Origin: Enterobacteria phage Aplg8
Direction: 5' to 3' (one strand)
Sequence record: NC_054902.1
Length of the DNA stretch: 64,000 bases
The first letter of the stretch is position 1; each line of letters opens with the position of its first letter. A program made the translations under genes and the position numbers. The notes under the pieces are model-generated. The model was not told where the DNA came from. It worked only from the letters and a program-made list of their open reading frames with translations, and made no database searches. This document shows, one piece after another, positions 21,746-54,346 of the stretch.

Positions 21746-21747
21746 AA

Positions 21748-22173: not shown

Positions 22174-22421
22174 TAATAAATTTCCTTCCAGTAAGTTGTA
22201 CCGTCTTCAGTGATTTCACGGAATACACCATAAATCGGTTGTTTATCACCAACCTTTTCATACACATAAACCGAAGTCAAGTGAGTAAACTTGATGGTGT
22301 GTTCCTTTTGAACTACTACCAAATCTGGATCGAATAATACATCTTCAAATTCGTCATTAGTGCAATTCTGAACAATTTTACGTTTCATTACAATTTCCTC
22401 ATTAATTGAACAGTGGAGCAA
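22173..22421 (-). CDS. Hypothetical protein, 82 aa
   Basis: ORF; stop/start overlap with neighbours. Confidence 0.35.
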
Positions 22422-22683: not shown

Positions 22684-22778
22684 GTTGTTTTCTGTATCAG
22701 TAGTTGATATTGATATAGTACCATAATCAACTACTGATGTATATAGTTTTATGAAAAAATTTTAAACTTTATGCAAAT

Positions 22779-23198: not shown

Positions 23199-23207
23199 AA
23201 TAATTCC

Positions 23208-23681
23208 TTAAGCTTTACGAGGAGAAGCATAACGAGTGATTTCAGATTCTTCAACAACCCGGAAGTCACCTAAAAATACAATATTGTATAGCTTTTTACC
23301 GTCTTCAATCCATTGGTCTGTGATGAAGCCACACATCCTATCAGTTTTACTTGGACCAGCGAAATCATCAATATAATCGAATTCTTCATCAGTTACAAAT
23401 TCAACGCCTTTACACAACGCCCATTTAAATTGTGCATTAGACTCAGTGGATTCAACTTCTTCAACAGAAGCAAAATGAGAGCTAACACGAGTTTCCAGAA
23501 ATTTAGGACTTACGTAAGCGTACTGAGTTTCAGTTTTTCCAGAACTAGGAATGATTCGAACTTTAACTTCTATAACACGACCAGTACCATTAGTACGAAG
23601 TCCTACCACTTCAACTAGACGACCTGCAGCTTTAGAACGAGATGCAGACGATACACGCTTAATTTCACCGATAGTAATCAT
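23208..23681 (-). CDS. Paralogue-family protein P2
   Basis: 157 aa; VSSASRSKAAGRLVEVVG... and FITDQWIEDGKKLYNIVFLGDFRVV. Confidence 0.5.
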   Translation of the reverse strand: MITIGEIKRVSSASRSKAAGRLVEVVGLRTNGTGRVIEVKVRIIPSSGKTETQYAYVSPKFLETRVSSHFASVEEVESTESNAQFKWALCKGVEFVTDEEFDYIDDFAGPSKTDRMCGFITDQWIEDGKKLYNIVFLGDFRVVEESEITRYASPRKA

Positions 23682-23753
23682 AATTTTTCTCTCTTTGCTG
23701 TTAAGATTTATTCTCCATGAGAGCCATTATAACAGGCTCTCTATAAAGTAAAC

Positions 23754-24248
23754 TTAATTAAGGATATTAATTACTGCACTACGTGGAACTACACTAAAAT
23801 CACCTGCATGAACAACGTTCAGAAGTTCAACACCGTCTTCAATCCACTGATCAGTTACCCATCCACTCACTGGACCTGCGAACGGACGTCGAATTGAAAC
23901 AGCTTTACACAACAAATCAGTAGGCTCAATAGGCTTAACCAGAGTACCGTACATACAAGCGATATCCATATCAATACAGATGTCTTTAACGGGTTCTACT
24001 TCTTCAATCAACAGTTCAAAGTCGGTGCTTGGAAGGGCGGTAGTAGAAATTGTACCGTATGAATTTTTAATTTCTAAGAATAACCAAGGGCCTTCAGCTT
24101 GTTTGATGAAGTTAACAATAGTGAAACTATTACCTTGAGTGGCGCCTAAAATTTCACAAAACTTTTCATAAGCTCGCACTGAAGCACCATACCAGTTGAT
24201 TTGCTTTTCGTCTTTCAGGATGTAAGTAGCTGTAGTACTGATATTCAT
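23754..24248 (-). CDS. Paralogue-family protein P1 (shares only the C-terminal motif)
   Basis: 164 aa; WVTDQWIEDGVELLNVVHAGDFSVV. Confidence 0.5.
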   Translation of the reverse strand: MNISTTATYILKDEKQINWYGASVRAYEKFCEILGATQGNSFTIVNFIKQAEGPWLFLEIKNSYGTISTTALPSTDFELLIEEVEPVKDICIDMDIACMYGTLVKPIEPTDLLCKAVSIRRPFAGPVSGWVTDQWIEDGVELLNVVHAGDFSVVPRSAVINILN

Positions 24249-24260
24249 GATGTTTTCCCC

Positions 24261-24764
24261 TTAATCTAAGGTAATAAAGCCTTTTAATTCGGCATGTGAC
24301 TTGCGGAACATTACTTGATGACCGCCAATGATAACTTGGTCATCAGGTACTTCGTATACAGCGAGATAAAATCCTTTAGAAGCTAATTCTTCACGCTCTT
24401 CTCGTGTGAACCATCTCATCATATCATATTCGCTAGCGAAAGCAAAATGATAAAGAGCTATAAACCATCCTGGAATATAGTGATCTACGCCTACATATTC
24501 TTCTTTCTCAAAATTAGTATTAATTGCTATATTAGCATTTTTAACTAATAATTTGTCTTCATGCGGCACAGGAATTCTTTTATTATCATTACTATGATGC
24601 ATAAAATTAGGTCTGTCATAACCTACGTGTAATAACCACTCTTCACTCCATGAATCTATTATACTCCTGTACGGAGTTATTTGAACACAAAGATCTCGAC
24701 GTATTGTTATAGCATCTTCATAATTAAGAATACTAAATGATGATTCAACACGATAAATTTTCAT
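24261..24764 (-). CDS. Hypothetical protein, about 167 aa
   Basis: Start at MKIYRVESS with GAGGATAATAAA ribosome-binding site; early promoter directly upstream. Confidence 0.45.
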   Translation of the reverse strand: MKIYRVESSFSILNYEDAITIRRDLCVQITPYRSIIDSWSEEWLLHVGYDRPNFMHHSNDNKRIPVPHEDKLLVKNANIAINTNFEKEEYVGVDHYIPGWFIALYHFAFASEYDMMRWFTREEREELASKGFYLAVYEVPDDQVIIGGHQVMFRKSHAELKGFITLD

Positions 24765-24784
24765 TTTATTATCCTCAGTAGCTA

Positions 24785-24825
24785 TGGTGTTATAATACCA
24801 CAACTAACCGAGGAAGTAAACAACT
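24785..24825 (-). promoter_or_regulatory. T4 early promoter
   Basis: - strand GTTTAC, spacer, GGTATTATAAC. Confidence 0.55.
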
Positions 24826-24827
24826 TT

Positions 24828-25511
24828 TTATCGTTTTGTTGGAAGAGACAGAGGATCGCACTCTTCCTCTGACGGAGCATCTTCAAGACCCATAGCGTAT
24901 CGCAAAGCATACTTCATCATCAGGATGTCTTTCGCACAGTCATGAATAGAATCATGCGCAACGAATCCATCTAAGGTTCCCTTTGGAAGAGGACATGTTG
25001 TCATATCACGAACAAGCAGAAGTGCTTCAATTCTGGTACGAATATCACGCTGATTCCAGAATTTACATGGTTCTAACTTAAATGTGTCAAGCTCATTCTC
25101 AGAAACACCATTAAGACGTTGAATATCACGAATGAGATCGACTAAAATTGGAAAATCAAACGACATTCCACGGCACCAGCCTTGAGATTTCCAAGGATCG
25201 ATATTATGTGCATTGATGTAATCATTAAATTTTGCAATACCGTCGATAGTGCTTACATCTTCATCGGATGGTGCAATATTTTTTCGAGCTTCAGGAGATT
25301 GATTTTTCCACCATTCGATAGTGCTTTTAGTAAAAAGACGATGTCCTTTTTGGCTTTTTAAATCAAATTTGATTTTAATGCCACGTGAAACTAATTCATC
25401 AAACGTTTCAACTACTTCTGGGTTAGGGTCAAAAGCAATTACAGCCAAATCAATAACAGCTGCTTTTTCACCGCTTCCCATTGTTTCAAAATCTATAATA
25501 AAATCAAACAT
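24828..25511 (-). CDS. dexA: Exonuclease A (DnaQ-like 3'-5' exonuclease)
   Basis: 227 aa, same as T4 DexA; MFDFIIDFETMG... Exo-I motif. Confidence 0.85.
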   Translation of the reverse strand: MFDFIIDFETMGSGEKAAVIDLAVIAFDPNPEVVETFDELVSRGIKIKFDLKSQKGHRLFTKSTIEWWKNQSPEARKNIAPSDEDVSTIDGIAKFNDYINAHNIDPWKSQGWCRGMSFDFPILVDLIRDIQRLNGVSENELDTFKLEPCKFWNQRDIRTRIEALLLVRDMTTCPLPKGTLDGFVAHDSIHDCAKDILMMKYALRYAMGLEDAPSEEECDPLSLPTKR

Positions 25512-25786
25512 TAAATTTTCCTTGCTAAATCGCGAATTTGACCTACAGTATAATCTTGGATATAAACTTTATTAATAGGCTCATCAATAAATTTTGCCAT
25601 AGATTCAATATCTTTTTGCATCTCTTCAAGACTGTATATTATCTTTAAAGCTTTTTCGCGAATAGTAATATTTTCAGGACCAGAATTTTTCTCAATGACA
25701 GCTTTAACATTTGTCATAAGAGATTTAAACTGCTGCAAACTTAATTCAATCATTAATAACCGCCTTATAAAGATGGCTAATTTCAC
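25511..25786 (-). CDS. Hypothetical protein, 91 aa
   Basis: ORF; paralogous to 25746-26006. Confidence 0.4.
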   Translation of the reverse strand: MKLAIFIRRLLMIELSLQQFKSLMTNVKAVIEKNSGPENITIREKALKIIYSLEEMQKDIESMAKFIDEPINKVYIQDYTVGQIRDLARKI

Positions 25787-26006
25787 CTAAAATGTAATCA
25801 CTGATTGTAACAGTTTTTACTTCACCACAAAAGAATTCTAACGCAATTAAATCTCGTTCAATTTCTTCTAATTGAAGCATTAACTTGCCAGATTCAATTT
25901 TTACATTTCTACGATTTTTACTATAAGCTATTTCATAAATTTCGCTCACTTTATCTTGAAGCAGATAAAACTGGTCTTTAGTTATTTCCACGAATAGCTT
26001 CCTCAA
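25746..26006 (-). CDS. Hypothetical protein, 86 aa
   Basis: ORF with recognisable similarity to the downstream 91-aa ORF (QF..L...V......LEE...D......V.I.DY..G.I..L). Confidence 0.4.
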   Translation of the reverse strand: MRKLFVEITKDQFYLLQDKVSEIYEIAYSKNRRNVKIESGKLMLQLEEIERDLIALEFFCGEVKTVTISDYILGEISHLYKAVIND

Positions 26007-26238
26007 ATTTAATTAGTAATTTACAGACACTTTCATCTAGTGTAATTACCGTATCTGTATTACTGTGATATGATTGTTTTTCAATTCGTTTAATTGCTAA
26101 TATAGTATCACTTATAAGATAAAGCTTATGAAGGAGCTCAGCTCCTGTTACCATAACATCGAGATTATCTTGCTTATTAGTATGCTTCCTTATACCATCT
26201 ATTAGACGATTTAAATATTTTGAATTGATGTTAATCAT
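25978..26238 (-). CDS. Hypothetical protein, 86 aa
   Basis: ORF immediately downstream of dda. Confidence 0.4.
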   Translation of the reverse strand: MININSKYLNRLIDGIRKHTNKQDNLDVMVTGAELLHKLYLISDTILAIKRIEKQSYHSNTDTVITLDESVCKLLIKFEEAIRGNN

Positions 26239-26244
26239 ATAGCC

Positions 26245-27564
26245 TCACACATAAAACACATCATAACGACCACGTGTTACACCAACATAAAGAAGTTGTT
26301 GAGCTAGTTCAGCATCTGCATAATGAATACAAGGCGTATAAATGAAAGCACGGTCTACAGACATACCCTGAGCTTTATGGAATGTTGATGCAGGAAGTGC
26401 TTTCACTTTACTAAACTGTGATTTAGCATCCCAAAAATCACTCCACGGAGCCTTTCCGCCTTTATTCCAATTTTTATAAGTTTCTGCCGTTTTACCTAAA
26501 AACAGGTTAAACTTATATAGCTCTTCATCAGATGAAATTATTTTAATCTTTTCACGATAATATTCATCATCGCCGTAAGTTTCTACTGTTAAATCCCAAT
26601 GACGAATTAAGTATTCTCCAGGAACACCACGAGCTTTAACAAACGTTGATGTATACTCTGCTTCTATAATACGAACTAATTGTCCATTATTAAAAATAAT
26701 TTCTGATACAGGCTTTCCATCAATTTTATATGTTTTAATTAATGGTTCCTGCATTACAATAATTTCACCAACAATAAAATCTTTATCAGTTTCAAAAATC
26801 TTTTTACGAATAATATTGTTTAACTTGTCAACAGATTTATTCGTAAATGCCATTACGCGATTTTCAAACAAATCATCTAGTGATTTGACGATTGAAAAAT
26901 AATTTACCATAAAATCGCGTAAAGCGGTATCACCAGTAAATCCACGTACTCCATGCCCGTCAACAACTTTATCATAAATCCACTTACCGTTACGAACGTC
27001 AGTAGCTACATCAATAATAGGAGCATTACTGCGTTTAACTTCAGTGAGTTCACACTGATAAAAATCTTTATGCGTAAAGAATGGACTGATATAAGCAGTA
27101 TTTTCTCCTGGGTCAACAGGTCTAATTTGCTTATTATCACCTATTCCAATTATAGTACACCACGGCGGGATAGTTGAAAGCAGAATTTTAAATAGCTTTC
27201 TATCATACATTGACACTTCATCGCAGATTAATACTCTGCATTTAGCTAAATCTGGTACTTCCTTCTGCTCAAAGAGGACATTTTCTTCATATGTTACCGG
27301 GTTAATTTTGAGAATACTGTGAATAGTACTCGCTTCTTTCCCTGATAGTTTTGAAAGAATCTTTTTAGCTGCATGAGTAGGAGCTGCTAAAATAATGCCA
27401 GTTTCGCCCGTAGATATTAAGGCTTCAATGATGAACTTAGTAAGAGTAGTCTTACCAGTACCAGCAGGTCCATTAATAGTTACATGATGTTTCTTTTCTT
27501 TAATAGCCCTCATAACAATGTTAAAGGCATTTTTCTGGCCTTCAGTCAAATCATCAAATGTCAT
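26245..27564 (-). CDS. dda: Dda DNA helicase (SF1B)
   Basis: 439 aa, same as T4 Dda; Walker A GPAGTGKTT; near-identical to T4 Dda as recalled. Confidence 0.9.
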   Translation of the reverse strand: MTFDDLTEGQKNAFNIVMRAIKEKKHHVTINGPAGTGKTTLTKFIIEALISTGETGIILAAPTHAAKKILSKLSGKEASTIHSILKINPVTYEENVLFEQKEVPDLAKCRVLICDEVSMYDRKLFKILLSTIPPWCTIIGIGDNKQIRPVDPGENTAYISPFFTHKDFYQCELTEVKRSNAPIIDVATDVRNGKWIYDKVVDGHGVRGFTGDTALRDFMVNYFSIVKSLDDLFENRVMAFTNKSVDKLNNIIRKKIFETDKDFIVGEIIVMQEPLIKTYKIDGKPVSEIIFNNGQLVRIIEAEYTSTFVKARGVPGEYLIRHWDLTVETYGDDEYYREKIKIISSDEELYKFNLFLGKTAETYKNWNKGGKAPWSDFWDAKSQFSKVKALPASTFHKAQGMSVDRAFIYTPCIHYADAELAQQLLYVGVTRGRYDVFYV

Positions 27565-27872
27565 CGTAAATTCCCTGCAATTGGTATACTAACAATACGC
27601 CCAGTATCTAAAATTCGCCGATATAATCTTTGTGTGTCTACATCAGGCTTAACATGTTTAACTTCTATTTTATTAAACCAAAACTTGCGTGGAGTCTCAA
27701 CTAATCTTGGAATTCCCTTACCTAAAGCTAATCGATACTGCTCTTTAAGAGTAGTAAATACTTTATCAGCAATATTCCATTCAAAAAATACAGCAGGACG
27801 ATGTTCATCAAGCGGAACTGGCGCCGTAAATCCGTCTTTGTCTCGGTAAACTATCGCATATACATAAACCAT
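27561..27872 (-). CDS. dda.1-like hypothetical protein, 103 aa
   Basis: ORF with stop/start overlap with dda. Confidence 0.45.
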   Translation of the reverse strand: MVYVYAIVYRDKDGFTAPVPLDEHRPAVFFEWNIADKVFTTLKEQYRLALGKGIPRLVETPRKFWFNKIEVKHVKPDVDTQRLYRRILDTGRIVSIPIAGNLR

Positions 27873-27873
27873 A

Positions 27874-28629
27874 TTATCCTCGGATAAGTTTAAAAATTGA
27901 ACAATTTAGCGGGTATCCTCTTTTCAGTTTAAGTTTATCAATAAAAGACAAGTTTTGATACCGCTCTACACCTTGAATAATTTTATCACACATATCATAT
28001 TGCATTTCTGCTTCTGACAACTTTTTCACAATTTTCCAATCCGAGCCTTTAAGAAGAACGTTCAGTTTAACAACTTCAGCGCCTTCTGCTATGCGAGAAC
28101 CATCAATACGAGCTTTAAGTGCTATAATTCTTAGCTTAATGTCAGAGGTCTGTTTTGATTTAGAAAGCTGAGAAATGTGTTCAATTCGGTTTTCACGTTT
28201 TTTCTGTATAGCTTTAATTTGATTATAAGTCTTTTTGATTTTAGCCCATTTCTTTTCATCTAAATTTAGTTTATGAACTTTTTTCGCAGATGAACGACCA
28301 ATTCGCAAAGCAAACAAATCACGTTTTTCAATTAACTCCTCTAAAGTATAATCAGAACGAAATGTATTATACTTTTTCTTTACTGCAATAACATTCCCTT
28401 TAATGTATCCAACGTTATTATCAAAACGTTCTAATGATAATTTCTCTCCTTCAATACGATTATCAAAAGGTTCTCCCGAGTAAGCACAAACTTTTTGATC
28501 TAAAATGTTCTTAATGTAATTGAAGTCTAAGTTAAAATCTTTAGAACGTCTTTTTGCAGATGCCTGAGTATGCTCTAAACGACGTTTAATTTTACGAATT
28601 TGGTTATTAGACATATTATGCAGTTTCAT
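27874..28629 (-). CDS. Srd-like protein (putative anti-sigma/sigma-decay factor)
   Basis: 251 aa basic protein at the T4 srd position between modA and dda.1; assignment by synteny only. Confidence 0.45.
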   Translation of the reverse strand: MKLHNMSNNQIRKIKRRLEHTQASAKRRSKDFNLDFNYIKNILDQKVCAYSGEPFDNRIEGEKLSLERFDNNVGYIKGNVIAVKKKYNTFRSDYTLEELIEKRDLFALRIGRSSAKKVHKLNLDEKKWAKIKKTYNQIKAIQKKRENRIEHISQLSKSKQTSDIKLRIIALKARIDGSRIAEGAEVVKLNVLLKGSDWKIVKKLSEAEMQYDMCDKIIQGVERYQNLSFIDKLKLKRGYPLNCSIFKLIRG

Positions 28630-28654
28630 ATTTTTATCACATCTTACGGACGAT

Positions 28655-28700
28655 TGACTACTATACTATAACATTTTTACTTTAACTTGTAAACAACTTT
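28655..28700 (-). promoter_or_regulatory. T4 early promoter
   Basis: - strand GTTTAC (28689-28694), spacer, -10-like TATAGTATAG. Confidence 0.45.
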
Positions 28701-28751
28701 ATGTAAAAATGCTTTAAAAATTTCATGGTATAATGAATCTAAGTCCTTCCA

Positions 28752-29354
28752 TTATAGATTAAATCCTTCAAAATCAAGAGTATAGATAGTGTATGTTGAA
28801 TACTTTTTGTACTCATATCTATCTGCAATTTTAAATACACTTCCAGCTGGTATCATTACTTCTTGTTCATCTGAAACTAATTCCATATTACGATAACGAT
28901 GGCTATCCGGAAACTTAAAGTTTGGATTGTATTCTTTACAGCGTAGAGCTTTTATAGCATACTCCTGGAAATTGAATACCATAGGAGCTTTGAATTCAAA
29001 AATAACTTGTGTGTTGTATTCTAATCCAGAAGCAAAATGTAGAGCTATATTTTTATCATATGAAGCTGATACTACTTTATCAAATGTAATAATATCAATT
29101 CCTTGATTTAACACCTGCTTAGTCTCAACTGGAACACCTCTCCAAAGAGGTTTATCGTTTGGAACCAAACGAGATTTGATTATTTCATTTAACCAAGTAT
29201 GGTCATCTGGCTTATTAGTAATACAATGAATTAAAAGTTCAATTTCAGATAAATTAAACCCTTCAGAAAGTAATTCTTCACGAATAGAAGCACGCACCGA
29301 TGCATCCATTGATTTTATTTTAAAATCTTTTAGTTGCATTACTGAGTATTTCAT
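28752..29354 (-). CDS. modA: ModA ADP-ribosyltransferase
   Basis: 200 aa, same as T4 ModA; R...S...E-type motif (RGVP ... SASYD ... EQEVMIP). Confidence 0.7.
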   Translation of the reverse strand: MKYSVMQLKDFKIKSMDASVRASIREELLSEGFNLSEIELLIHCITNKPDDHTWLNEIIKSRLVPNDKPLWRGVPVETKQVLNQGIDIITFDKVVSASYDKNIALHFASGLEYNTQVIFEFKAPMVFNFQEYAIKALRCKEYNPNFKFPDSHRYRNMELVSDEQEVMIPAGSVFKIADRYEYKKYSTYTIYTLDFEGFNL

Positions 29355-29974
29355 TCAACTACCTCAATATCATAAACTTTAAATGTTCCAAATGAATCGT
29401 GTAATTTTTCTTTTGAAATAGAAGTTATTTTATACTTTCCAATTGGAATCATCCATTCTTGTTCATGTGCAATCATCATTAAGTTATCAGTACGTTCTGA
29501 ATCTAATCCATCAGTATCTTCATATGTATACTTAAACTCAGTATTAGGAGAAGAAAGTATAATATCGCTGATATGGTCAGAGTAATTAAAAGCTTTATCC
29601 GTTTTTAAGCGAAGTACTATTTCAGTGAAATATTCAGCATAAGAAAAAGAACACGCTGTATGCAAACTAGTAGTAAATGAATCTACTCTGTTCGTTGAAA
29701 ACACTTCTCCAACTTGTAAATCTTTAATGAGTTCTTTTGTCGATTTTGATATACCACGATATAGCTGATACGGCGATTTAGTTAAATGCTTTTTAACGAT
29801 TTTATTCAACTGTTGGTGAAGAGCTTCATTCTTTTTGGCTTCCATACATTGCCAAAGAACTGACTGTTCAAAGTCAGTAAATTTTTCACAGACCTTTTTA
29901 TACATATCATATTGAAAATCAACACTTTCAGCTTTTATAGATAGCTGTTCAACATCTGCAAGATTAATAATCAT
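29351..29974 (-). CDS. modB: ModB ADP-ribosyltransferase
   Basis: 207 aa, same as T4 ModB; paralogue of ModA (RGIS ... EQEWMIP). Confidence 0.7.
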   Translation of the reverse strand: MIINLADVEQLSIKAESVDFQYDMYKKVCEKFTDFEQSVLWQCMEAKKNEALHQQLNKIVKKHLTKSPYQLYRGISKSTKELIKDLQVGEVFSTNRVDSFTTSLHTACSFSYAEYFTEIVLRLKTDKAFNYSDHISDIILSSPNTEFKYTYEDTDGLDSERTDNLMMIAHEQEWMIPIGKYKITSISKEKLHDSFGTFKVYDIEVVE

Positions 29975-30041
29975 GATAGCCTCCGTATACTTCAGAAGCT
30001 ATCATATCATTGTTAGGAAGGAAAGTAAACAACTTTTTGAA

Positions 30042-37735: not shown

Positions 37736-38098
37736 TTAAAAGAATTTAAACTTTTTCTTTGACCTTTTATTAAATGCATCTTGTAGTTGCATTGTAATAC
37801 ATTTTTCTACATGAGGAGCTAACTCAGCTTTTCTTTCTTGGTCAAGAACAGCAAAGTCCATTACAACCTTTCCATCAACCCAATCCAGTTTAGTTACATA
37901 CACTATATGTGTAGAACCATCTTCTAGTTTAATGACAATCTCCTGGATAACATTTTCCATGGCAGATTTAATTATCTTAAGAGATTCATTAAAAAGACGT
38001 TCTTTTCTTTCTTCTTCCCCCTCCGAAGAGGGGGATTCGTCGATAATTTCTAGATCTAAATCTAAATCATCTTTATTCATTAAATTCTTCCATATCAC
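37736..38098 (-). CDS. gp40-like protein (head assembly)
   Basis: 120 aa between uvsX and 41, as for T4 gene 40. Confidence 0.45.
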   Translation of the reverse strand: MIWKNLMNKDDLDLDLEIIDESPSSEGEEERKERLFNESLKIIKSAMENVIQEIVIKLEDGSTHIVYVTKLDWVDGKVVMDFAVLDQERKAELAPHVEKCITMQLQDAFNKRSKKKFKFF

Positions 38099-39254
38099 TT
38101 AACTGTTCGAGGTCAGTTTCTAAATCAGCTGCTGATTTACTTTTACTTTCTGGAGATTTAAATTTTTCAACCTTTGAGTTAATCAATTCATCAACTTCAG
38201 CTTCAACAATTTCATTACTATCAATAGCACCTAATTGATAAGCACGTTTAATAGCATCTCGGAATGGTTGATGCTTAAATAAAGGACCCCAGAATGTAGT
38301 GCAGTTGGTATCTTTTGCACGCCAAGATTTTTCTTCGCGAATCATCTCGCCGGTTTCTTCGTCAAGAAATTCACGAGCATACCAGCCATTTTTAGGTTTT
38401 ACTACAAATCCTAATTCTAGAGCCATATCTAACAATCCAGAATAAGGATCGATACCACCGTCAAATTTAACATCAATAAAGAATTTACTTTTTTCTTTAA
38501 CGGTACGAGATTTTTCTACATTTAGAACAAATTGATACCCCTGAAGATCAGAACCATCTTTAATCTGGCGTTTACCGATAATGAATACAGTATCAGCCGA
38601 ATACATTACGCCTGTACCACCTGTCATCACGGTTTTACTAAACATTTCAATTGTTTCAATTGTATGGTTAACCGCAACGCACGGAATATTTTTAATGCTA
38701 AAATAAGGAGTAACAATACGGAATAATGACTTCAGTGATTTAGCACGAGTCATATCTGCCACAGATTTTTCATTCAAGGCATCTTCCGTTTCTTTCTTAG
38801 AAGCCATATTACCAATTGAGTCGATGAATACTATAACCTTTTCACCACGCTCAATAGCTTCAAGCTGATTCACCATATCAATTTTCAGCTGTTCAACTGA
38901 CTGGATTGGCGTATGAATTACTCGTTCCGGGTCAACTCCCATGGATCGCAAATAAGCTGGAGTAATACCAAATTCGCTATCATAGAATAGACAAACCGCG
39001 TCAGGATATTTGTTCAAATACGCCGCAACCATAGTCAAAGACATATTTGATTTAAAGTGTTTAGAAGGACCTGCAAAAATAGTTAAACCAGACTGCATGC
39101 CGCCATCAATCGCACCAGAAATAGCAATATTAAGCATTGGGATTTTTGTACGGATTACATCCTTTTCATTAAAGAATTTAGATGTAGTCAGTTCAGCAGT
39201 CATTTTAGAAGTGGAAGCTTTAATCAAACGGGATTTTAAATCTGCAATAGACAT
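38073..39254 (-). CDS. uvsX: UvsX recombinase (RecA-like)
   Basis: 393 aa; MSIADLKSRLIKASTSKMTAEL..., Walker A GPSKHFKS; T4 UvsX-like. Confidence 0.9.
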   Translation of the reverse strand: MSIADLKSRLIKASTSKMTAELTTSKFFNEKDVIRTKIPMLNIAISGAIDGGMQSGLTIFAGPSKHFKSNMSLTMVAAYLNKYPDAVCLFYDSEFGITPAYLRSMGVDPERVIHTPIQSVEQLKIDMVNQLEAIERGEKVIVFIDSIGNMASKKETEDALNEKSVADMTRAKSLKSLFRIVTPYFSIKNIPCVAVNHTIETIEMFSKTVMTGGTGVMYSADTVFIIGKRQIKDGSDLQGYQFVLNVEKSRTVKEKSKFFIDVKFDGGIDPYSGLLDMALELGFVVKPKNGWYAREFLDEETGEMIREEKSWRAKDTNCTTFWGPLFKHQPFRDAIKRAYQLGAIDSNEIVEAEVDELINSKVEKFKSPESKSKSAADLETDLEQLSDMEEFNE

Positions 39255-39331
39255 TCATTTTTTCCATAGGCATCATTATATTTTCCTCACTGGTTAAAGA
39301 TAGAGTAATTATAACACAATAAATTTAGGCA

Positions 39332-40174
39332 TTAATCAACTGCTATTGGATGAATAGCATTAAACTTATGAAATGCTTCTGATTTTTCTTTACGCGAAAC
39401 ACACATGCGAAGAACCTTTAATGGCTCGTCTTCTTCACCCAACGATTTTCGTTTTTCAATATTCGACGTTTTCCAACGAGCTTGCTCTGGAAACTCTCTA
39501 TTGATTTGCTCAAGCGCTCTATTATGTTTAGAATTACTACGAATTGAACTACACCCACCAGGAGCTTGCGCTTTACCTGATACAACCAGATATTTGAACA
39601 AGGCCAAATGCGGATAACCTTGATTAATTAAATTGAGAAATGCATACATATCTTCGCACAAATCAATTTTTCCATACCCAATTTGTTCTGTCGTAAGTTT
39701 TCCGAGGTCATACCATGTATTCGTGAATCCATATGAATTTTCACGATAATTACCCCAAGATGAAGTAATTTTAAAAATAGGTAGACGAGCATGGCCATGA
39801 TAATACCCGCAATCCATGGCATCCTCAACATATTGAATCAATTCATAGAACTGTTCACGAGTCAATTGATTGACTTTATCTACGCAACGACGATCATCTC
39901 TTTTTCGCATTGAACTCATACGAATAGTAGTATCATCGTCAATCATCCAGATTCGTTGGCCTGCATACATATCAGTAATTGCTTTACGAGTACCGGCAAT
40001 TCCGTTTACATCATCAGGAATAGTTATAATTTTAGCTCTAGACCCATAGGCATCATAATAAGCTTTTTCTTCATGTTCACGCACTACAATATGGGGTTCA
40101 TAATCAGTCGGAAACATATCAAGGGCAGAAACTGCCCCTACACGTTGATAACTTGGAATTACGAATTGAATCAT
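39332..40174 (-). CDS. Putative GT-A fold glycosyltransferase (DxD motif) at the beta-gt locus; candidate hmC-glucosyl modifying enzyme
   Basis: About 280 aa; N-terminal FVIPSYQR strand and IWMIDDDTT (DxD) motif; sits between uvsX and 42 where T4 has beta-gt; ATG overlaps the gene 42 TGA. Confidence 0.55.
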   Translation of the reverse strand: MIQFVIPSYQRVGAVSALDMFPTDYEPHIVVREHEEKAYYDAYGSRAKIITIPDDVNGIAGTRKAITDMYAGQRIWMIDDDTTIRMSSMRKRDDRRCVDKVNQLTREQFYELIQYVEDAMDCGYYHGHARLPIFKITSSWGNYRENSYGFTNTWYDLGKLTTEQIGYGKIDLCEDMYAFLNLINQGYPHLALFKYLVVSGKAQAPGGCSSIRSNSKHNRALEQINREFPEQARWKTSNIEKRKSLGEEDEPLKVLRMCVSRKEKSEAFHKFNAIHPIAVD

Positions 40175-40911
40175 TTCCACTCACCGTTATAATCTTTTTT
40201 CACAATATGAGTTTCGCCAGTATTCCACCAATGATCAACCAAGTAAAAATGACGAGAATATACATGAAGACTTCCAACATTCCATATAATAGAACCTGCT
40301 TTATACTGACGAGTTGAATCGCCGGCATTCAAATCAGATACTAATTTATCTAATACGTATTTTTGCCATGCATAATCATTACGGAATCCGAAGACCACGT
40401 CATTTGAGCGCATGCTTACTACTGCATTGACTTTCTTATCACGAATCAGGTACTGTACTGTATTAGTACACATGAAATCTGACATACCATCTTTATTGTA
40501 GTCAAATTGCATGGATGGACGAGTATAAATCATGATACCACGTCGAGAATCAGGATTTTGACCAAGTTCAGCTAAACACATATCATACTGGGCATAGTTA
40601 TCTTCTGACCAAATAGCCCAACCATAATTCGAGTTAATTTCGCCTTTAGAAGATGCTACCTGCTGCCAAATCTTTGGTGTTTCGCCTGGAATATCTTTGA
40701 CAAACAGACTTTGAGACTTGTACCATTCAAGTTCACGCTGAATGTATTCATCATTAAGAGCGCCAAAAATAAAGGGTTCATCTGCTACAAATGATGCGCC
40801 AATAATTTCAATAGTTTTAACACCGGTTTTATCAACTACGAAATCTTTTTCTTTTAATGCAAGCCCCAAATGAAGACGGATTTCTTCAACTGTCATAGAG
40901 TCACTAATCAT
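40171..40911 (-). CDS. 42: dCMP hydroxymethylase gp42
   Basis: 246 aa, same as T4 gp42; thymidylate-synthase-like fold motifs. Confidence 0.9.
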   Translation of the reverse strand: MISDSMTVEEIRLHLGLALKEKDFVVDKTGVKTIEIIGASFVADEPFIFGALNDEYIQRELEWYKSQSLFVKDIPGETPKIWQQVASSKGEINSNYGWAIWSEDNYAQYDMCLAELGQNPDSRRGIMIYTRPSMQFDYNKDGMSDFMCTNTVQYLIRDKKVNAVVSMRSNDVVFGFRNDYAWQKYVLDKLVSDLNAGDSTRQYKAGSIIWNVGSLHVYSRHFYLVDHWWNTGETHIVKKDYNGEWK

Positions 40912-41064
40912 TTAAACCTCAATTGATACATTCATATTTAAATTGTAACAGTAATAAACCCCACCCTATGATAAGAGTTGGAATCATAGCAGGAACTGTT
41001 ACGCTATAGTATATACTTATTATAACCATCAAGATTAAAAGCAACACTGTTATAATTTTGCTTT

Positions 41065-41316
41065 TCATTCTTTCTCTCTGATGATAATTACCTGATTTGG
41101 CTGTGCAGACTTTTTAGTTTCACCAGCAATTGACCAAATAAATGTAATAAACCAACCAATAATTGACCAGTTAAACAGTAAAGATGTGAAAAAGATTCCT
41201 ACTGTCGATTTTGACCCACGCATCAAGGCGATAAACCATGGAAGCATGTATATAATAATAGCCAACACACCTGAAACTAAAACCATAAAAATTGAACCTG
41301 CTACTAAAGTTTCCAT
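41065..41316 (-). CDS. imm: Immunity protein Imm (superinfection exclusion membrane protein)
   Basis: 83 aa with two TM segments, same size and position as T4 Imm. Confidence 0.7.
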   Translation of the reverse strand: METLVAGSIFMVLVSGVLAIIIYMLPWFIALMRGSKSTVGIFFTSLLFNWSIIGWFITFIWSIAGETKKSAQPNQVIIIREKE

Positions 41317-41323
41317 GTTTTCC

Positions 41324-41704
41324 TCACTTAGTCAAATTTTTTACACATGAATTATAAGAATTCACTACATACTCCATCGGAGCATTTTTACCAGTACGCC
41401 ATTGGTAATTATTAGCCCAATTAGCCCAAATTTCGGCGCAGTAGTTTTCAATTTTTTCTTCGCGTGTAATTACATCAGAATTACGATATGCTTGAGCAGA
41501 TTCATCTGGACGAATAGCTTCGTCAAAATTCGCCTGCATTTGTTCGACTGTTTGCTTTGGAGCTTCTTTATAACACTTGACATTAGGATTATAAAATTTG
41601 CTTGAACAGTTTACAATTTTTCCTACATCAGACTGATTTACTACCGGTCCTTGAGCTATACAACCAGTAAGACCTAATGCAATAACCAAAATAGCGATTT
41701 TCAT
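41324..41704 (-). CDS. Putative lipoprotein, 126 aa
   Basis: Signal peptide plus lipobox (LGLTGC). Confidence 0.45.
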   Translation of the reverse strand: MKIAILVIALGLTGCIAQGPVVNQSDVGKIVNCSSKFYNPNVKCYKEAPKQTVEQMQANFDEAIRPDESAQAYRNSDVITREEKIENYCAEIWANWANNYQWRTGKNAPMEYVVNSYNSCVKNLTK

Positions 41705-41714
41705 AATAATTTCC

Positions 41715-41963
41715 TCAAATGCAAGTAGTAATTACTCCAGTAGTGCTTATGCAGGTATTACCCATTTGCACACCTAAAGATCCATTTGTATTCACATGAA
41801 GATTATCATCAATTTTAACTGATATTTTACCATTAGTGTGAATAACGGTGCTAGATTCAATCACAGGTTGAGTATCATTTTCAACACTAACAAATGGAAC
41901 TGCTGCTAATGCAACTAAACAAACTGCTAAGCATCCCATAACAATTTTCATTTTATTCTCCAA
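41715..41963 (-). CDS. Secreted/membrane small protein, 82 aa
   Basis: N-terminal signal-like hydrophobic segment. Confidence 0.4.
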   Translation of the reverse strand: MENKMKIVMGCLAVCLVALAAVPFVSVENDTQPVIESSTVIHTNGKISVKIDDNLHVNTNGSLGVQMGNTCISTTGVITTCI

Positions 41964-41974
41964 ATCCGTATTAG

Positions 41975-42020
41975 TTGATAGTTGTATAGTACCATGGAAG
42001 AACAGTCTTGTAAACAGTTT
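41975..42020 (-). promoter_or_regulatory. T4 early promoter
   Basis: - strand GTTTAC, 17 bp, GGTACTATAC. Confidence 0.55.
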
Positions 42021-42102
42021 TGTGAAAATTTTTTAGGGAATTCTAAAGGTCCAGAATCATCTGTTTTTCATAAGTATAGATTTATATTACTTGTATGAAA
42101 AA

Positions 42103-42118
42103 GGGACCCGGAGGTCCC
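42103..42118 (-). terminator. Rho-independent terminator downstream of gene 43
   Basis: gggacc-cgga-ggtccc followed on the - strand by a U-run. Confidence 0.55.
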
Positions 42119-42131
42119 CAGATTTATTCTA

Positions 42132-44828
42132 TCAGCCAAACAGGAAGTCTAACGAAGCTTTTTCTTCATAGTCCATACCAGCCGATTCACACATACCCGC
42201 AAGCGGTTTAACAAACGATTTTTGGAACAAAGTTGAGTAGTCAATCCAAGACAGTACGTCAGAACGAATTTCTTTTGGAAGTTCTGTGCCCGACGGCCAA
42301 GCAATACACTTGTCACCAAATGGATTTCCTTCACGTAATGGAAGAACCATTACTTTATTTCCATCCAAAATTGGAGCTACACCCAGACCATTAACAGCTC
42401 GACGATAAGTTAGCACACCACGAATATGGAACGGGCATTTAAATCCTGGCCAACCTTTATCATCATATTTCGCTATATCGTTCGCAGTTTTTACTTCAGC
42501 AATAACTTTATAGTCAAGTTGACGATATTCTTTCTCGAAGTTCTTGTAATATTCTTGGACAGACTCTTCACCTTCCTGAAGAATACGACGAATACTTTCT
42601 TCGAGAGCTTCTTGCACTGCTTTTGGTGTTGAACTCTGCTGAGTTTCCATACCCATGATTTTTAGATGCGGTTCAGCAAATCGCTTATCTTCCATATCAT
42701 AAACGTTCAGAGCATAACGCTTTTTCGCTTTCCAAAATCCGCCAACGCCTTTTGAACCAAGTGGAGGGCAAGAAATAGCTTCACGGTCCATATGCATCAG
42801 ATGCTCGCGGTTATTCATATAATCACATAACTCACGATATGCAACATCAATCATAGGTTCCATCTTTTTCTTACCGAACTGATTCATGAATTCAACTAAA
42901 TCGTTCTGCTCTTTGAATCGGTCAAGACCAACTTTTTCAATAACTTTATCTACACAAACATATACCGAATCAGTATCACCTGCTGCGATGAAATCTTCGC
43001 CATTAGTTCCACATACTTTATTCAGATACTCATTAATTTTACGAGCAATCCACTGAATACCGACTTGACCAAAAATTGTAATAGCAGTAGCATTTCGCAA
43101 ATCATAGTAGCGGAAATGAATATTACCAAGAGCACCGTAAAGGCTGTTAATAAGAATTTTACGGTTCAGCTGATTTGTATTAGCAAGTGTAGCCGCTTTT
43201 TCACATTCTTCAATCAAACTATTGAGAACAGATTCAGTATAATTCGATAGTTCATTTAAGAAATCATCACTGAACTTAACATATCGTTCAACTTCAGGTT
43301 TAGTTGAACAAGACCCTGCGCCTTTCATAATAATCTTTTTAATAGCTTCGGCATTCATTTCTTCAGCGAACATTTTCTTTTTCCAATCTTTACGCTGGAA
43401 AAATACTTTAGCGATTTCCTTTGGAATGATACCTTCTTGATGCTTATCATACATCCATCCATTCGGAGAACAAGAATATTCATCACTCGGTTTAGGAGCT
43501 GTTCCTGCGATATATTCATGAATTGGATGAACTTTAAACTGCCCACGAATAGTCTCAGGACTAATGTTAACCTGACGAATAATGCTCGGATACAGAGACG
43601 TCAAGTCAAAACTCATAATATATCGACGAGCAATTGGTTTAGGTTCAAACACAAATGCACCCGGAAAACTCTGTTTAACATGCGAACCTTGTTGAGGAAT
43701 AACCTTATGTTCACCTTTCAATGAGTTAAAAATAATAGCATCCCAGGTTTTAATAGGACTCATTACACCGGAAAAAGGCATTTTAGCGTAATAAGACATA
43801 CTTAAAACTAGATCGATAAACCCGCGAATTTTATCAATTGCTTGAACTGATTCTACGTCAATGATGTTATAACTAATGTATCGTTGATGATTAGTCTCAC
43901 GAAGTTTATTAATAGGACCGTCGTATGGTAATTTACCTTTTTTGGTTTCATGTTGAGCAACTGATTCCAAAGAGAATGACGGCAAATTAGTAAAAGCGAA
44001 TTTCTTGTACAAATCTAAATAATCAAGAATAGATACGCCATCAATAGAATAAATTTCTTTGCTACCGTACATATTTTGAATTAATTTAGATTTTACTCGA
44101 CCGATTGGAGAGAAGCGTTTCATACTACGTTCACCGAGAACCATTTTAACGCGATTCATGATATACGGAACGTCAAATCCCTCAATATTCCAACCGGTAA
44201 AAATAGCAGGTCGTTTCTGTTCCCAAAGATTAATATATTCCATGAGCATATCACGCTCATTATCGAATGGCATATAAATTACTCGGTCAAGAATTTCTTG
44301 AGGAACTTCATCACCACCTTCACAGTCAAGCTTAGCAGCTAACTTTGCATCCCATTTTGATACTGAACCATACATTGAATTCAAAAGGTCGAAAACATAA
44401 AAACGATCATCAATTGAATCGTAATGAGTGATAGCATCAATTTCATATTCAGCTTTCATTGGGTCAGGAAATTTATCACCAGTAACCTCAATGTCACAGT
44501 TAGCTACACGAACAAATTTTCGGTCATAAACAATTTCTGAACCGTATGTATCACTGATATAAGCGAGTTTAAAATCGTTCATACCGAGAGCTTCGAGACC
44601 GATGTCTTCCATTCGTTTCATCCAATCTCGAGCATCTTTCATTGATGAAAATTTTTGAGGAGCGCAATTTTTACCATAGATGTCTTTGTACTTTGACTCT
44701 TCCTTACAATGCCTAAACATAGTCGGAAGATATTCTACTTCACGAGTACGTTCCTTTCCGTTTTCATCAATATAACGTTCAACAATGTTATTTCCGACTG
44801 TTTCGATAGAGATATAAAATTCTTTCAT
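42132..44828 (-). CDS. 43: DNA polymerase gp43 (family B)
   Basis: 898 aa, same as T4 gp43; exonuclease motifs and polymerase motif C (AAGDTDSVYV). Confidence 0.95.
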   Translation of the reverse strand: MKEFYISIETVGNNIVERYIDENGKERTREVEYLPTMFRHCKEESKYKDIYGKNCAPQKFSSMKDARDWMKRMEDIGLEALGMNDFKLAYISDTYGSEIVYDRKFVRVANCDIEVTGDKFPDPMKAEYEIDAITHYDSIDDRFYVFDLLNSMYGSVSKWDAKLAAKLDCEGGDEVPQEILDRVIYMPFDNERDMLMEYINLWEQKRPAIFTGWNIEGFDVPYIMNRVKMVLGERSMKRFSPIGRVKSKLIQNMYGSKEIYSIDGVSILDYLDLYKKFAFTNLPSFSLESVAQHETKKGKLPYDGPINKLRETNHQRYISYNIIDVESVQAIDKIRGFIDLVLSMSYYAKMPFSGVMSPIKTWDAIIFNSLKGEHKVIPQQGSHVKQSFPGAFVFEPKPIARRYIMSFDLTSLYPSIIRQVNISPETIRGQFKVHPIHEYIAGTAPKPSDEYSCSPNGWMYDKHQEGIIPKEIAKVFFQRKDWKKKMFAEEMNAEAIKKIIMKGAGSCSTKPEVERYVKFSDDFLNELSNYTESVLNSLIEECEKAATLANTNQLNRKILINSLYGALGNIHFRYYDLRNATAITIFGQVGIQWIARKINEYLNKVCGTNGEDFIAAGDTDSVYVCVDKVIEKVGLDRFKEQNDLVEFMNQFGKKKMEPMIDVAYRELCDYMNNREHLMHMDREAISCPPLGSKGVGGFWKAKKRYALNVYDMEDKRFAEPHLKIMGMETQQSSTPKAVQEALEESIRRILQEGEESVQEYYKNFEKEYRQLDYKVIAEVKTANDIAKYDDKGWPGFKCPFHIRGVLTYRRAVNGLGVAPILDGNKVMVLPLREGNPFGDKCIAWPSGTELPKEIRSDVLSWIDYSTLFQKSFVKPLAGMCESAGMDYEEKASLDFLFG

Positions 44829-47993: not shown

Positions 47994-48185
47994 TTAGTCA
48001 TAATAATCAGTAACAGTCCAAGCTTCATTTCTATTGGACATTATTTTTGTATATTCTGCTTTAAATGCATTCCTAAGCATATATTCAGTAACTATATGCT
48101 CTTCATTAGAAAAATTATTTCTCAGAATATATCGTTTTATTTCAGGAAAAGTTAATAGATGCTGTCCAGTTGAATATTCTGCCAC
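47994..48185 (-). CDS. Hypothetical protein, 63 aa
   Basis: ORF between 46 and rpbA. Confidence 0.4.
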   Translation of the reverse strand: MAEYSTGQHLLTFPEIKRYILRNNFSNEEHIVTEYMLRNAFKAEYTKIMSNRNEAWTVTDYYD

Positions 48186-48195
48186 AGTTCCTCCG

Positions 48196-48203
48196 TATAA
48201 ATA
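48196..48203 (+). promoter_or_regulatory. T4-type late promoter (TATAAATA) upstream of the + strand HNH ORF
   Basis: Exact TATAAATA about 34 nt upstream of the ATG at 48237. Confidence 0.5.
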
Positions 48204-48236
48204 TGTTTATCACTCGCTGTATCAAAAGGATATGTT

Positions 48237-48953
48237 ATGAATTATAAACTAATTTATGAAAAGTTAATCTCTAATGCTAAATCTCGAAAACTTGATTGCT
48301 ATACTGAATCTCATCACATTATACCACGCTGTTTAAATGGCAGCGATGATGCCTCAAACTTAGTAGATTTAACACCAGAAGAGCACTATGTAGCTCATCA
48401 ACTTTTAGTAAAAATTTATCCTTCTGAACCAAAATTAGTCTATGCTGCTAACATGATGACAGTTTCCACGAAATACGCTAAACGTAACAATAAAACTTTC
48501 GGTTGGATTCGTCGTAAACTCTGGGAAATAGAAAAGAATAAAGAATTCTCCCAGGAGACACGAAAGAAAATGTCTGATGCAGTAGCTAATAAAGCAAGAC
48601 TAACTTGTCCACATTGCGGTAAGTCCGGATTAAGCGGGAATATGAATCGATGGCATTTTGATAACTGCCCGAATCACCCTAATCCTAAAGTTAGACCACC
48701 GATGTCTAAAGAACACAGAAATAATATCTCAAACGGGCTTAAAGCAATCATTCTTGAAGAAACATCCTGCGAATTCTGCGGAATGATAGGCAAGAAATGC
48801 GTTATCGCAGCGCATAGAAATTTCTGCAAGAAAAATCCAAATGGACGCAAGAAAACTGAAAAGACTGGTACTTGCGTCCATTGTGGTAAAGTTACCACTT
48901 TCGGAAATTTATCAAGATGGCATAATGATAACTGTAAATATAAACCTAGCTAA
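48237..48953 (+). CDS. HNH-family (homing) endonuclease-like protein with three C-terminal zinc-finger-like repeats
   Basis: 238 aa; HNH core ESHHIIPRCLNGSDDASNLVDLTPEEHYVAH; three repeats of C-x2-C-G...RWH.DNC...NP (from CPHCGK, CEFCGM, CVHCGK); opposite strand to its neighbours; its stop overlaps the gene 46 stop. Confidence 0.6.
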   Translation: MNYKLIYEKLISNAKSRKLDCYTESHHIIPRCLNGSDDASNLVDLTPEEHYVAHQLLVKIYPSEPKLVYAANMMTVSTKYAKRNNKTFGWIRRKLWEIEKNKEFSQETRKKMSDAVANKARLTCPHCGKSGLSGNMNRWHFDNCPNHPNPKVRPPMSKEHRNNISNGLKAIILEETSCEFCGMIGKKCVIAAHRNFCKKNPNGRKKTEKTGTCVHCGKVTTFGNLSRWHNDNCKYKPS

Positions 48954-50634
48954 TCTTAGCTAAACTAAATCTACCAACTTTTTCCATTTGAATATGCTGA
49001 CCATATTCTTGTGGGTCATGGTCTTTATGCGAAATTATGAAGAAGTTGGTATCCTTCAAACCATCTAAAATTTTAGCTACATTTTTAATACCTTCAGCAT
49101 CAAATGCACCGTCATACACTTCATCAAGAAATAAACAACTTATTTTAACACCTGAAACTTTTTCAGCAATATCACGCCAAGTAAATAAAAGAGCAATATC
49201 AATTCGTGCTTTTTCACCTTGACTGAATGAAGCATAACTAAAATCTTCACGACCACGGGATTTAATTGTCTCATTAAATTCTTCATCTAATGTAAACACA
49301 TAATCCGCTTCCATTATTTTAAGATAATGGTTAATCTGCTTATTAAATAATGGAATGTACTTTTTAATAATAGCACCTTTAATACCAGAATCTTTGAGCA
49401 TATCAGTCAAAATTCCTCGGTGGTATTTTTCCATTACTAAATTAGTTTTTGTCTTAACAATTTTATCAAGTTCTTCTTGAAGCAGTGCTATTTCATCAGC
49501 ATGGTCAATAAACTCAGAAGATGCTTTTTCTATAGCTGCTTTAACTTTTTTAGCTTTATCTACCGTCGTGATTAGAGATTGCTTTTTATTGCGAATATCA
49601 TTTGCCAACGACTGCTGAGTTTTAATATTATCTCGGTATTCATCAACAAGAACTTTTAAATTATCACGGTGTGTTGAAAGCTGTTCAAACGAATGCGTAC
49701 ATTCAGAAACTTTATCTTTAATTTTAGAAACAACTTTATCACCGGAACTTAATTGTGACAAGCAGGTTGGACATAATCCACCTTCGTGATACATATTAAT
49801 GACTTTATTATACGAGTCAATTTTTGATTTAATTAAAACTGCTTCTTGACCGATTTTATTAAATGCATCAGTCGGGTCTTCATCCAAAACAATATTAACT
49901 AATCTTTCATTAGCTTCTTCTATTTCCGATTTTAGCGTTCTAGCTTCTTTTGCCAAATCATCATACATATTTTGTAGACGAGTAAGGTTGTCACCCGTTA
50001 ATTTTTTCTGGCGTTCAACGTTATCATTATATATTTTAATTTGTTGGATAATACTATCTTTTTTAACATCAAGCACTTGGTTTTGTGAATTTAATTCACG
50101 TATTAGTGCTTTATTAAGCTTATCCATTTCAGCTAATGTTCCTACCTCAAGCAGGTCTTCCACAAGCTTTCTTCGCGCAGGGGTCGACAAACCCATGAAA
50201 GGGGTATACCCTGCTGTACCAAGGACAACAATCTGCTTGAAACTGGCATATGACATTCCGATAAGCTGTTCAAATTCTGCTTGGAAATCTTTACTGCTGG
50301 CAGATTCATTAAGACGTGTACCGTTAACGGTGATTTCGAAAACGTTTGGTTTTTGTCCTCTTTTGATATAGTACTTTTTCTCATCATATTCCATCCACAA
50401 TTCAACTAAAAGTTCTTTCTTATTTGTGCTGTTTATTAATTGACCTTTCTTTACATCACGAAATGGCTTGCCAAAAAGCCCAAATGTGATGGCTTCTAAC
50501 ATAGTAGACTTACCACCGCCATTTCGTCCAGTAATAAGAGTTTTTTGAACCTTATCTAATTGAATGTCAACTCCATTTTGACCAACTGACATTATATTTT
50601 TATATTTTACTCTATTAAGTTTAAATGATTTCAT
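48946..50634 (-). CDS. 46: Recombination endonuclease subunit gp46 (Rad50/SbcC-like)
   Basis: 562 aa; Walker A GRNGGGKST, zinc hook CPTC, signature and D-loop at the C-terminus. Confidence 0.9.
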   Translation of the reverse strand: MKSFKLNRVKYKNIMSVGQNGVDIQLDKVQKTLITGRNGGGKSTMLEAITFGLFGKPFRDVKKGQLINSTNKKELLVELWMEYDEKKYYIKRGQKPNVFEITVNGTRLNESASSKDFQAEFEQLIGMSYASFKQIVVLGTAGYTPFMGLSTPARRKLVEDLLEVGTLAEMDKLNKALIRELNSQNQVLDVKKDSIIQQIKIYNDNVERQKKLTGDNLTRLQNMYDDLAKEARTLKSEIEEANERLVNIVLDEDPTDAFNKIGQEAVLIKSKIDSYNKVINMYHEGGLCPTCLSQLSSGDKVVSKIKDKVSECTHSFEQLSTHRDNLKVLVDEYRDNIKTQQSLANDIRNKKQSLITTVDKAKKVKAAIEKASSEFIDHADEIALLQEELDKIVKTKTNLVMEKYHRGILTDMLKDSGIKGAIIKKYIPLFNKQINHYLKIMEADYVFTLDEEFNETIKSRGREDFSYASFSQGEKARIDIALLFTWRDIAEKVSGVKISCLFLDEVYDGAFDAEGIKNVAKILDGLKDTNFFIISHKDHDPQEYGQHIQMEKVGRFSLAKIS

Positions 50635-53127: not shown

Positions 53128-53145
53128 AAAGGGCCGAAGCCCTTT
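53128..53145 (-). terminator. GC-rich tetraloop hairpin at the 3' end of agt
   Basis: aaagggccgaagcccttt followed by a T/U-run. Confidence 0.5.
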
Positions 53146-54346
53146 ATTTTGTAATAATGTCAAACTGTTCTTTAAAGCAGAAGCTTGAATCTTGATGCTG
53201 ATACAAAAATTCATAAGCTTTTTCGCGTTCACGGTCATAAAGAGTTCGGTCAGATGACAGTTCTTTAATACGTTCAAACGTTGATTCCATGTCATTTTCA
53301 TCAAACCAAATGATACCGCTATCATGCGAGGTCAAAGGAGTATTATCAACACGGAATTTTAAATTTTCGCCAGTAGATTTCCAAAATACCGGAATTGTTC
53401 CACATGCACCAAGCTCGAGATGAGTATATTCTAAAGAACGTTGTAGATATTTTTTATCCAACTTACTCAACTGATAACCAAATCCGGATTTACTCATGCG
53501 TTCAAGCATTTCGCTATTTACATAACGGTCAAGAATTTGCGTTGGCAAATTAGGAGCAATTTTAATTTGGTCTACTTGATGAAGACGATAATACTCGTAT
53601 GGAATTCCTTTTTCTTTAATAGGAATGAACGCTGGAGAACGTTCCAGACCTTCCATAATAGTACTTAGTCCTGCAGGTTTAAGATGTTTTTCATGAAAAT
53701 CAAACATCTGATAAAAACCTTTCCATGTAGTCGTACGACCAATCCAACGGTTGATATTCATGTTAATTTCAGAAACATCTTTCCAGTAGGTTGACCGAAC
53801 CTTCGCAATATCCATAGGAGGCTGAAAGTTATATACTGTCGGTGCTTCTTCAATATCATCAAACAGAGAAACTGTTTCAGGATACCATTCTTTCATCAGA
53901 ACTTTATTAAAATCACCATTATCAGAATGGCTAAAAATAACATCAGCTCGACGAACAGTTTCTTCTAATCCCAAATTTCGGCGCAAAGAAAGAGAAGAAT
54001 GGTCATGTTGATAAACTACAACACGAACCGAAGGTTTAATGTTATCAATAATTTTTTTATAGTTATTAATAGTGTCTTCTTCAACCGAAGTAGCAGGAAC
54101 TGAATTGATAATTAGAATATCACAATCATTTACCAGCTTAAGTGTTTTATCATATTCTTTTGCCAATAAAACCGGAATTGAAAATGATTTATAATCATGC
54201 GCGCAATTACGAGTAAATGATTTATCTTTAGCATAAACCAAAGTTACTTCATGACCATTCTTAATAAACCAATCACGTTGCTCAAGAGAAAATTTAGTTA
54301 CACCACAACCTTCAAGACCTCGAGCCATAAAAATACATACTTTCAT
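53144..54346 (-). CDS. agt: DNA alpha-glucosyltransferase (hmC alpha-glucosylation)
   Basis: 400 aa, same as T4 AGT; MKVCIFMARGLEGCGVTKF... near-identical to T4 AGT as recalled. Confidence 0.9.
   Translation of the reverse strand: MKVCIFMARGLEGCGVTKFSLEQRDWFIKNGHEVTLVYAKDKSFTRNCAHDYKSFSIPVLLAKEYDKTLKLVNDCDILIINSVPATSVEEDTINNYKKIIDNIKPSVRVVVYQHDHSSLSLRRNLGLEETVRRADVIFSHSDNGDFNKVLMKEWYPETVSLFDDIEEAPTVYNFQPPMDIAKVRSTYWKDVSEINMNINRWIGRTTTWKGFYQMFDFHEKHLKPAGLSTIMEGLERSPAFIPIKEKGIPYEYYRLHQVDQIKIAPNLPTQILDRYVNSEMLERMSKSGFGYQLSKLDKKYLQRSLEYTHLELGACGTIPVFWKSTGENLKFRVDNTPLTSHDSGIIWFDENDMESTFERIKELSSDRTLYDREREKAYEFLYQHQDSSFCFKEQFDIITK

Follow-up and report, generated by a model that had tools for sequence, protein, structure and literature searches.

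The genes for the beta-glucosyl-HMC-alpha-glucosyltransferases (ba-GT, also ggt) of phages T2 and T6 were reportedly cloned by Winkler and Rueger in 1993, in work said to have appeared in Nucleic Acids Research. The reaction of the enzyme has since been stated and its family named TAGT, and most glycosyltransferase-encoding phages pair an alpha-GT or a beta-GT with a TAGT protein (PMC13216743). Deletion of ba-gt from T6 results in DNA with only alpha-glucosyl-hmC and a greater sensitivity to Brig1 (PMC11078745). HPLC/MS analyses of nucleosides from Tequatroviruses carrying an alpha-GT together with a TAGT in the slot syntenic with T4 beta-GT, phage Solly among them, showed hmC, alpha-glucosyl-hmC and alpha-gentiobiosyl-hmC, and no beta-glucosyl-hmC (PMC13390438). 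Between them, these three papers cover the enzyme, its fold, its locus and its gentiobiosyl-hmC product. The published gentiobiosyl-hmC fractions are ~5% for T2 and ~72% for T6, despite 99% identical enzymes, and the fraction of diglucosylated hmC is therefore not readable from sequence. The stretch of DNA analysed here, 64,000 nucleotides of Enterobacteria phage Aplg8 (NC_054902.1) and hereafter called the window, carries the pair of an alpha-gt and a TAGT gene. Since the alpha-gt and beta-gt pair of T4 is found in only 6/753 genomes (PMC13216743), the arrangement of the window is the common one and that of T4 the exception.

Between uvsX and gene 42 the window contains the ORF of about 280 residues with the FVIPSYQR and IWMIDDDTT motifs on which the original prediction was based (Table 1). 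The start of ba-gt is the ATG at 40174, two codons 3' of the first GTG of the ORF, as annotated in AR1, T2 and KIT03. The protein from this start has the N-terminus MIQFVIPSYQR and IWMIDDDTT as residues 75-83. The start codon shares bases with the gene 42 stop codon, and the annotations of AR1, T2 and KIT03 have an identical overlap of 4 nt. Through this ATGA overlap, translation of ba-gt is probably coupled to that of gene 42. The copy in the window is intact and keeps all 40 family-invariant residues, including R11.

Table 1. Positions of the glucosylation genes, their neighbours and sequence motifs in the window
Feature	Position	Strand	Evidence or remark
uvsX recombinase, downstream neighbour	38073..39254	-	Pfam T4_UVSX_C E = 5e-39; RecA E = 2e-11
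Segment without DNA homology to T4	39243..40188		blastn of T4 20000-30000 vs window
ORF	39332..40180	-	ORF listing; 282 aa from first GTG
ba-gt / ggt CDS, assigned beta-glucosyl-HMC-alpha-glucosyltransferase (TAGT family)	39332..40174	-	280 aa + stop
DDD, codons 79-81, DxD motif	39932..39940	-	invariant; end of strand beta4
FVIPSYQR, codons 4-11	40142..40165	-	first beta-strand + loop, nucleotide-sugar-binding Rossmann-like domain; model strand E2-6
ATGA overlap, gene 42 stop / ba-gt start	40171..40174	-	minus-strand sequence GGTGAGTGGAAATGATTCAA
gene 42, dCMP hydroxymethylase, makes hm-dCMP	40171..40911	-	Pfam Thymidylat_synt E = 1e-15; annotated 42 in relatives
alpha-gt, DNA alpha-glucosyltransferase, makes alpha-glucosyl-hmC acceptor	53144..54346	-	Pfam AGT PF11440 E = 4e-237

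The ORF is almost certainly a T2/T6-type beta-glucosyl-HMC-alpha-glucosyltransferase, an inverting GT-A enzyme with a DxD motif that makes alpha-gentiobiosyl-hmC. Residues 2-277 align with profile positions 3-269 of the 270 of PHROG 842 ('beta-glucosyl-HMC-alpha-glucosyltransferase', E = 2.2e-89), and the Pfam TAGT profile (TET-associated glycosyltransferase, PF20691) is matched over positions 2-205 of 205 with 38.9 bits (E = 1e-9), above its gathering cutoff of 27.5 bits. Direct alignments with the ggt products of T2 (MH751506, AP018813) and T6 (MH550421, AP018814) showed 99% amino acid identity over the full 280 residues. In megablast, the gene is present at full length with at least 90% nucleotide identity in 473 phage records, mostly of Escherichia, Shigella and Yersinia Tequatroviruses and many of them annotated as beta-glucosyl-HMC-alpha-glucosyltransferase; the Solly gene is 98.2% identical to that of the window. 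In tblastn, a 100% identical protein is encoded in several deposited genomes, representing many independent isolates, and a second tier of ~65% identity is formed by T4-like phages of Klebsiella, Enterobacter and Citrobacter. One search of a large protein collection returned 11 relatives with identities as low as 28%, all 11 of them TAGT proteins. The window gene shares with those of T2 and T6 its position between uvsX and gene 42, the 4-nt overlap, the alpha-gt partner and the DDD motif, with only point differences. Family, near-identity to the T2 and T6 proteins, position, fold class, DDD conservation and the presence of alpha-gt and gp42 were computed here; the reaction chemistry, the need for the gene and its effects on host defences would carry over from published work on near-identical proteins.

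The original prediction, a second-sugar enzyme as in T2 and T6 in place of beta-gt, thus agrees with the near-identity, the PHROG 842 and TAGT matches and the GT-A-only structural matches described below. It identified the nature of the enzyme correctly and missed that the gene is the canonical T2/T6 gene rather than a variant, in the commonest arrangement of the genus. The gene is already known and has been annotated in hundreds of sequenced phages.

The fold was modelled with AlphaFold2 from an alignment of nine of the TAGT relatives with identities as low as 32%, which was also used to define the invariant columns. The 40 invariant columns include I6, P7, S8, Y9, R11, D79, D80, D81 and D175. 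The model is only moderate (mean pLDDT 72.5, pTM 0.73), with a confident N-terminal beta-alpha-beta core and with residues 131-150 and 203-211 below a pLDDT of 50. Structural comparisons of the model yielded GT-A-type folds only and no GT-B matches, that is, a single Rossmann-like alpha/beta/alpha domain for NDP-sugar binding. D79-D81 directly follow model strand E74-79 at its C-terminal end (pLDDT ~87). The end of the fourth beta-strand is the canonical position of the DxD motif in GT-A enzymes. The assignment as a GT-A enzyme with a DxD motif, already made from the letters of the sequence, is therefore borne out by the model and by the invariance of DDD in the nine sequences. D79-D81 are predicted to bind the metal and UDP-glucose, and D175, part of an invariant E-D motif with which a helix begins, may be the catalytic base. 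A sequence search of the PDB gave chance matches only (E > 1), and no solved structure was found for the TAGT family.

Comparison of the window with the T4 stretch showed DNA homology up to 39242, within the 5' end of uvsX, and again from 40189 onwards, within the 3' end of gene 42; both boundaries are sharp. The 946-bp segment between them stands for the 1941-bp T4 segment of segA and beta-gt (T4 extract 3557-5497). The T4 slot also contains segA, a GIY-YIG homing endonuclease gene lying between uvsX and beta-gt. No segA is present in the slot of the window, and tblastn found nothing significant for it anywhere in the window (its best match, over 32 aa, has E = 0.006). The slot between uvsX and 42 is syntenic with that of T4 beta-gt, as would be expected of a divergent T4 beta-gt equivalent placing a single beta-glucose on hmC, and according to the literature both enzymes take UDP-glucose as donor and attach the sugar to modified phage DNA in beta linkage. 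However, BLASTP of the ORF against T4 beta-gt (NP_049658, 351 aa, T4 RefSeq) found nothing, with a best E of 2.2 over 8 aligned residues, consistent with the lack of resemblance noted in the original prediction. Likewise, a tblastn search of the full 64-kb window with T4 beta-gt found nothing (best E = 1.5), and the ORF does not match Pfam PF09198 (T4-Gluco-transf), which T4 beta-gt itself matches with E = 9e-98. A T4-like beta-gt is ruled out by these searches both at the locus and in the window. T4 beta-gt is a GT-B enzyme of CAZy family GT63 that acts on hmC, whereas the window enzyme is modelled as GT-A and, from the literature, its acceptor would be alpha-glucosyl-hmC. Together with the LC-MS results for relatives without a beta-GT, in which beta-glucosyl-hmC is lacking, the sequence and fold comparisons make a beta-gt equivalent at this locus exceedingly improbable.

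The T2/T6-type assignment also has to be weighed against a TAGT glycosyltransferase of another specificity (a different donor sugar, a different linkage or direct action on hmC) and against a ba-gt that is present but inactive or weak. TAGT homologs are found with an alpha-GT, with a beta-GT or alone, indicating that specificity varies across the family (PMC13216743), and the product levels of T2 and T6 are far apart. However, divergent specificities have been proposed for distant homologs and not for near-identical ones, the 99% identity to T2 and T6 is interrupted only where the window carries the family consensus, and gentiobiosyl-hmC has been measured in closely related phages that encode this pair of genes. 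Another specificity is thus very improbable. The differences are R11 and P251 in the window versus H11 and S251 in T2, and Y40, D55 and R106 in the window versus N40, G55 and H106 in T6. At all of these positions the window agrees with the remaining aligned Tequatrovirus sequences (T2, T6, AR1). His11 is present in both independent T2 records (MH751506, extract 3286-4128; AP018813, extract 3283-4125); residue 11 of the window is Arg (codon 40142-40144), and the Arg of PSYQR is invariant in the aligned family. The T6 records show other oddities: in MH550421 (extract 3924-3980) codon 10 is an amber TAG instead of CAA and the CDS is annotated from Met20, and in AP018814 (extract 3135-3974) an in-frame one-codon deletion changes DDD to DD. 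Either could reflect a mutation in the phage stock or an error in sequencing. These lesions, and the ~5% of gentiobiosyl-hmC in T2 with its 99% identical gene, would favor an inactive or weak enzyme and a T2-like phenotype, with DNA of essentially alpha-monoglucosyl-hmC only. However, the window copy is intact, retains 40/40 invariant residues including the R11 that is His in both T2 records, and encodes a protein identical to that of many independent isolates, which makes an inactive or weak enzyme unlikely. It is conceivable, though somewhat doubtful, that H11 of T2 is a hypomorphic change behind the low T2 and high T6 levels. If so, the window enzyme with Arg11 would predict a T6- or Solly-like, mainly diglucosylated genome. 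There is no evidence against the T2/T6-type reading.

The surroundings of the gene are conserved. The order uvsX / ba-gt / 42 / 42.1 / imm / imm.1 / 43 is that of AR1, T2, T6 and KIT03, and gene 42 is 95% identical to its T4 counterpart at the nucleotide level. The T4-like alpha-gt of the original prediction was recovered at its predicted place with a strong AGT match (Table 1), syntenic with the annotated a-gt of KIT03. The GC content, which had appeared by eye to be somewhat higher than in the surroundings, is 0.374 for ba-gt versus 0.360-0.370 in the flanking genes (gp41 0.370, gp42 0.368, gp43 0.370, uvsX 0.360), so the impression did not hold. Among 843-nt windows (mean 0.351, s.d. 0.026) ba-gt lies at the 82nd percentile, with a typical GC3 of 0.246. 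A compositional anomaly or recent transfer of ba-gt was rejected, as GC and GC3 are the same as those of the flanking core genes. A scan of 39000-42200 for sigma-70 promoters gave 17 sites versus 14.8 ± 3.9 in shuffled sequence, showing no excess. Between ba-gt and uvsX (39255-39331, minus strand), the intergenic sequence AATGCCTAAATTTATTGTGTTATAAT, just upstream of uvsX, resembles by eye the layout of a T4 middle promoter: a TGCCTAA similar to the MotA box precedes a TATAAT -10 element by ~12 nt. A 9-bp GC-rich hairpin with a T-rich tail, TAGGGGCAGTTTCTGCCCTTG, lies at 40140-40120 on the minus strand in codons 12-18 of ba-gt and is conserved in T2 and T6. It was not read as a terminator because of its location inside the coding region, and may be a mere coincidence of the coding sequence.

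Assuming that the genes of the window act like their near-identical counterparts, gp42 would make hm-dCMP and the phage polymerase would put hmC into DNA. Alpha-gt would then use host UDP-glucose to attach an alpha-linked glucose to hmC, and ba-gt would add a second UDP-glucose-derived glucose in beta-1,6 linkage on the 6-OH of the alpha-glucose, the product being alpha-gentiobiosyl-hmC. By analogy with T2 and T6, the window enzyme should catalyze this beta-1,6 transfer from UDP-glucose to alpha-glucosyl-hmC. The mechanism would be inverting, since UDP-alpha-glucose gives a beta product, which fits a GT2-like GT-A enzyme. As the window contains no T4-type beta-gt, the DNA is predicted to contain hmC, alpha-glucosyl-hmC and gentiobiosyl-hmC without beta-glucosyl-hmC. 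The search covered the 64 kb of the window, and a beta-gt elsewhere in the genome would be excluded by synteny with complete relatives only.

Cellular inverting GT-A enzymes of the GT2 type (SpsA, TarS/TarP, K4CP, and the cellulose and hyaluronan synthases) have only 6-16% identity to the ORF, and the ORF has no match to Pfam Glycos_transf_2. Unlike these cellular enzymes, the acceptor of the ORF product would be a sugar on duplex DNA, and its C-terminal region of ~80 residues is family-specific. TAGT homologs from T4-like phages of Klebsiella, Enterobacter, Citrobacter and Serratia show 49-66% identity over the full length and usually adjoin a gene 42 homolog. They are more divergent than the T2/T6 enzyme, and their products are mostly uncharacterised.

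Several features elsewhere in the window were observed in passing. An insertion at 48180-48965 relative to KIT03, between 45.2 and 46, contains an ORF of 238 aa (48237-48953, plus strand) on the opposite strand to its neighbours, with a weak Pfam HNH match and an annotation as homing endonuclease in relatives. The insertion is absent from KIT03 and is covered by only 58 of the 502 related records, indicating a sporadically distributed mobile gene. Three consecutive ORFs of 139, 157 and 164 aa at 22779-24248 (minus strand) all match Pfam motB (modifier of transcription), and this region diverges strongly from KIT03, with 70% identity or no DNA match over 22776-24272. Four intergenic sequences of 60-100 nt (10883-10966, 14205-14266, 14696-14777 and 22665-22763) share 76-84% identity with the region between imm.1 and gene 43 of T4 (T4 extract 7008-7100) and have the appearance of a repeated regulatory element, perhaps an early-promoter region. 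No tRNA genes were found in the window.

For the window, the practical value of these results lies in a correct annotation and in the prediction of sensitivity to host defences rather than in a discovery. The ba-gt gene sets the sugar pattern of hmC, giving alpha-gentiobiosyl-hmC where T4 has both alpha- and beta-monoglucosyl-hmC. In vitro, gentiobiosyl-hmC is resistant to the Brig1 glycosylase, and deletion of ba-gt raises the sensitivity (PMC11078745). Gentiobiosyl-hmC also resists the glucose-removing activity of BapA (bioRxiv 10.64898/2026.02.25.707755). It is still targeted by type IV enzymes of the GmrSD/BrxU type (PMC13216743, PMC13390438). As published for T6 and its relatives, the sugar pattern alters the susceptibility of the phage to host defences.
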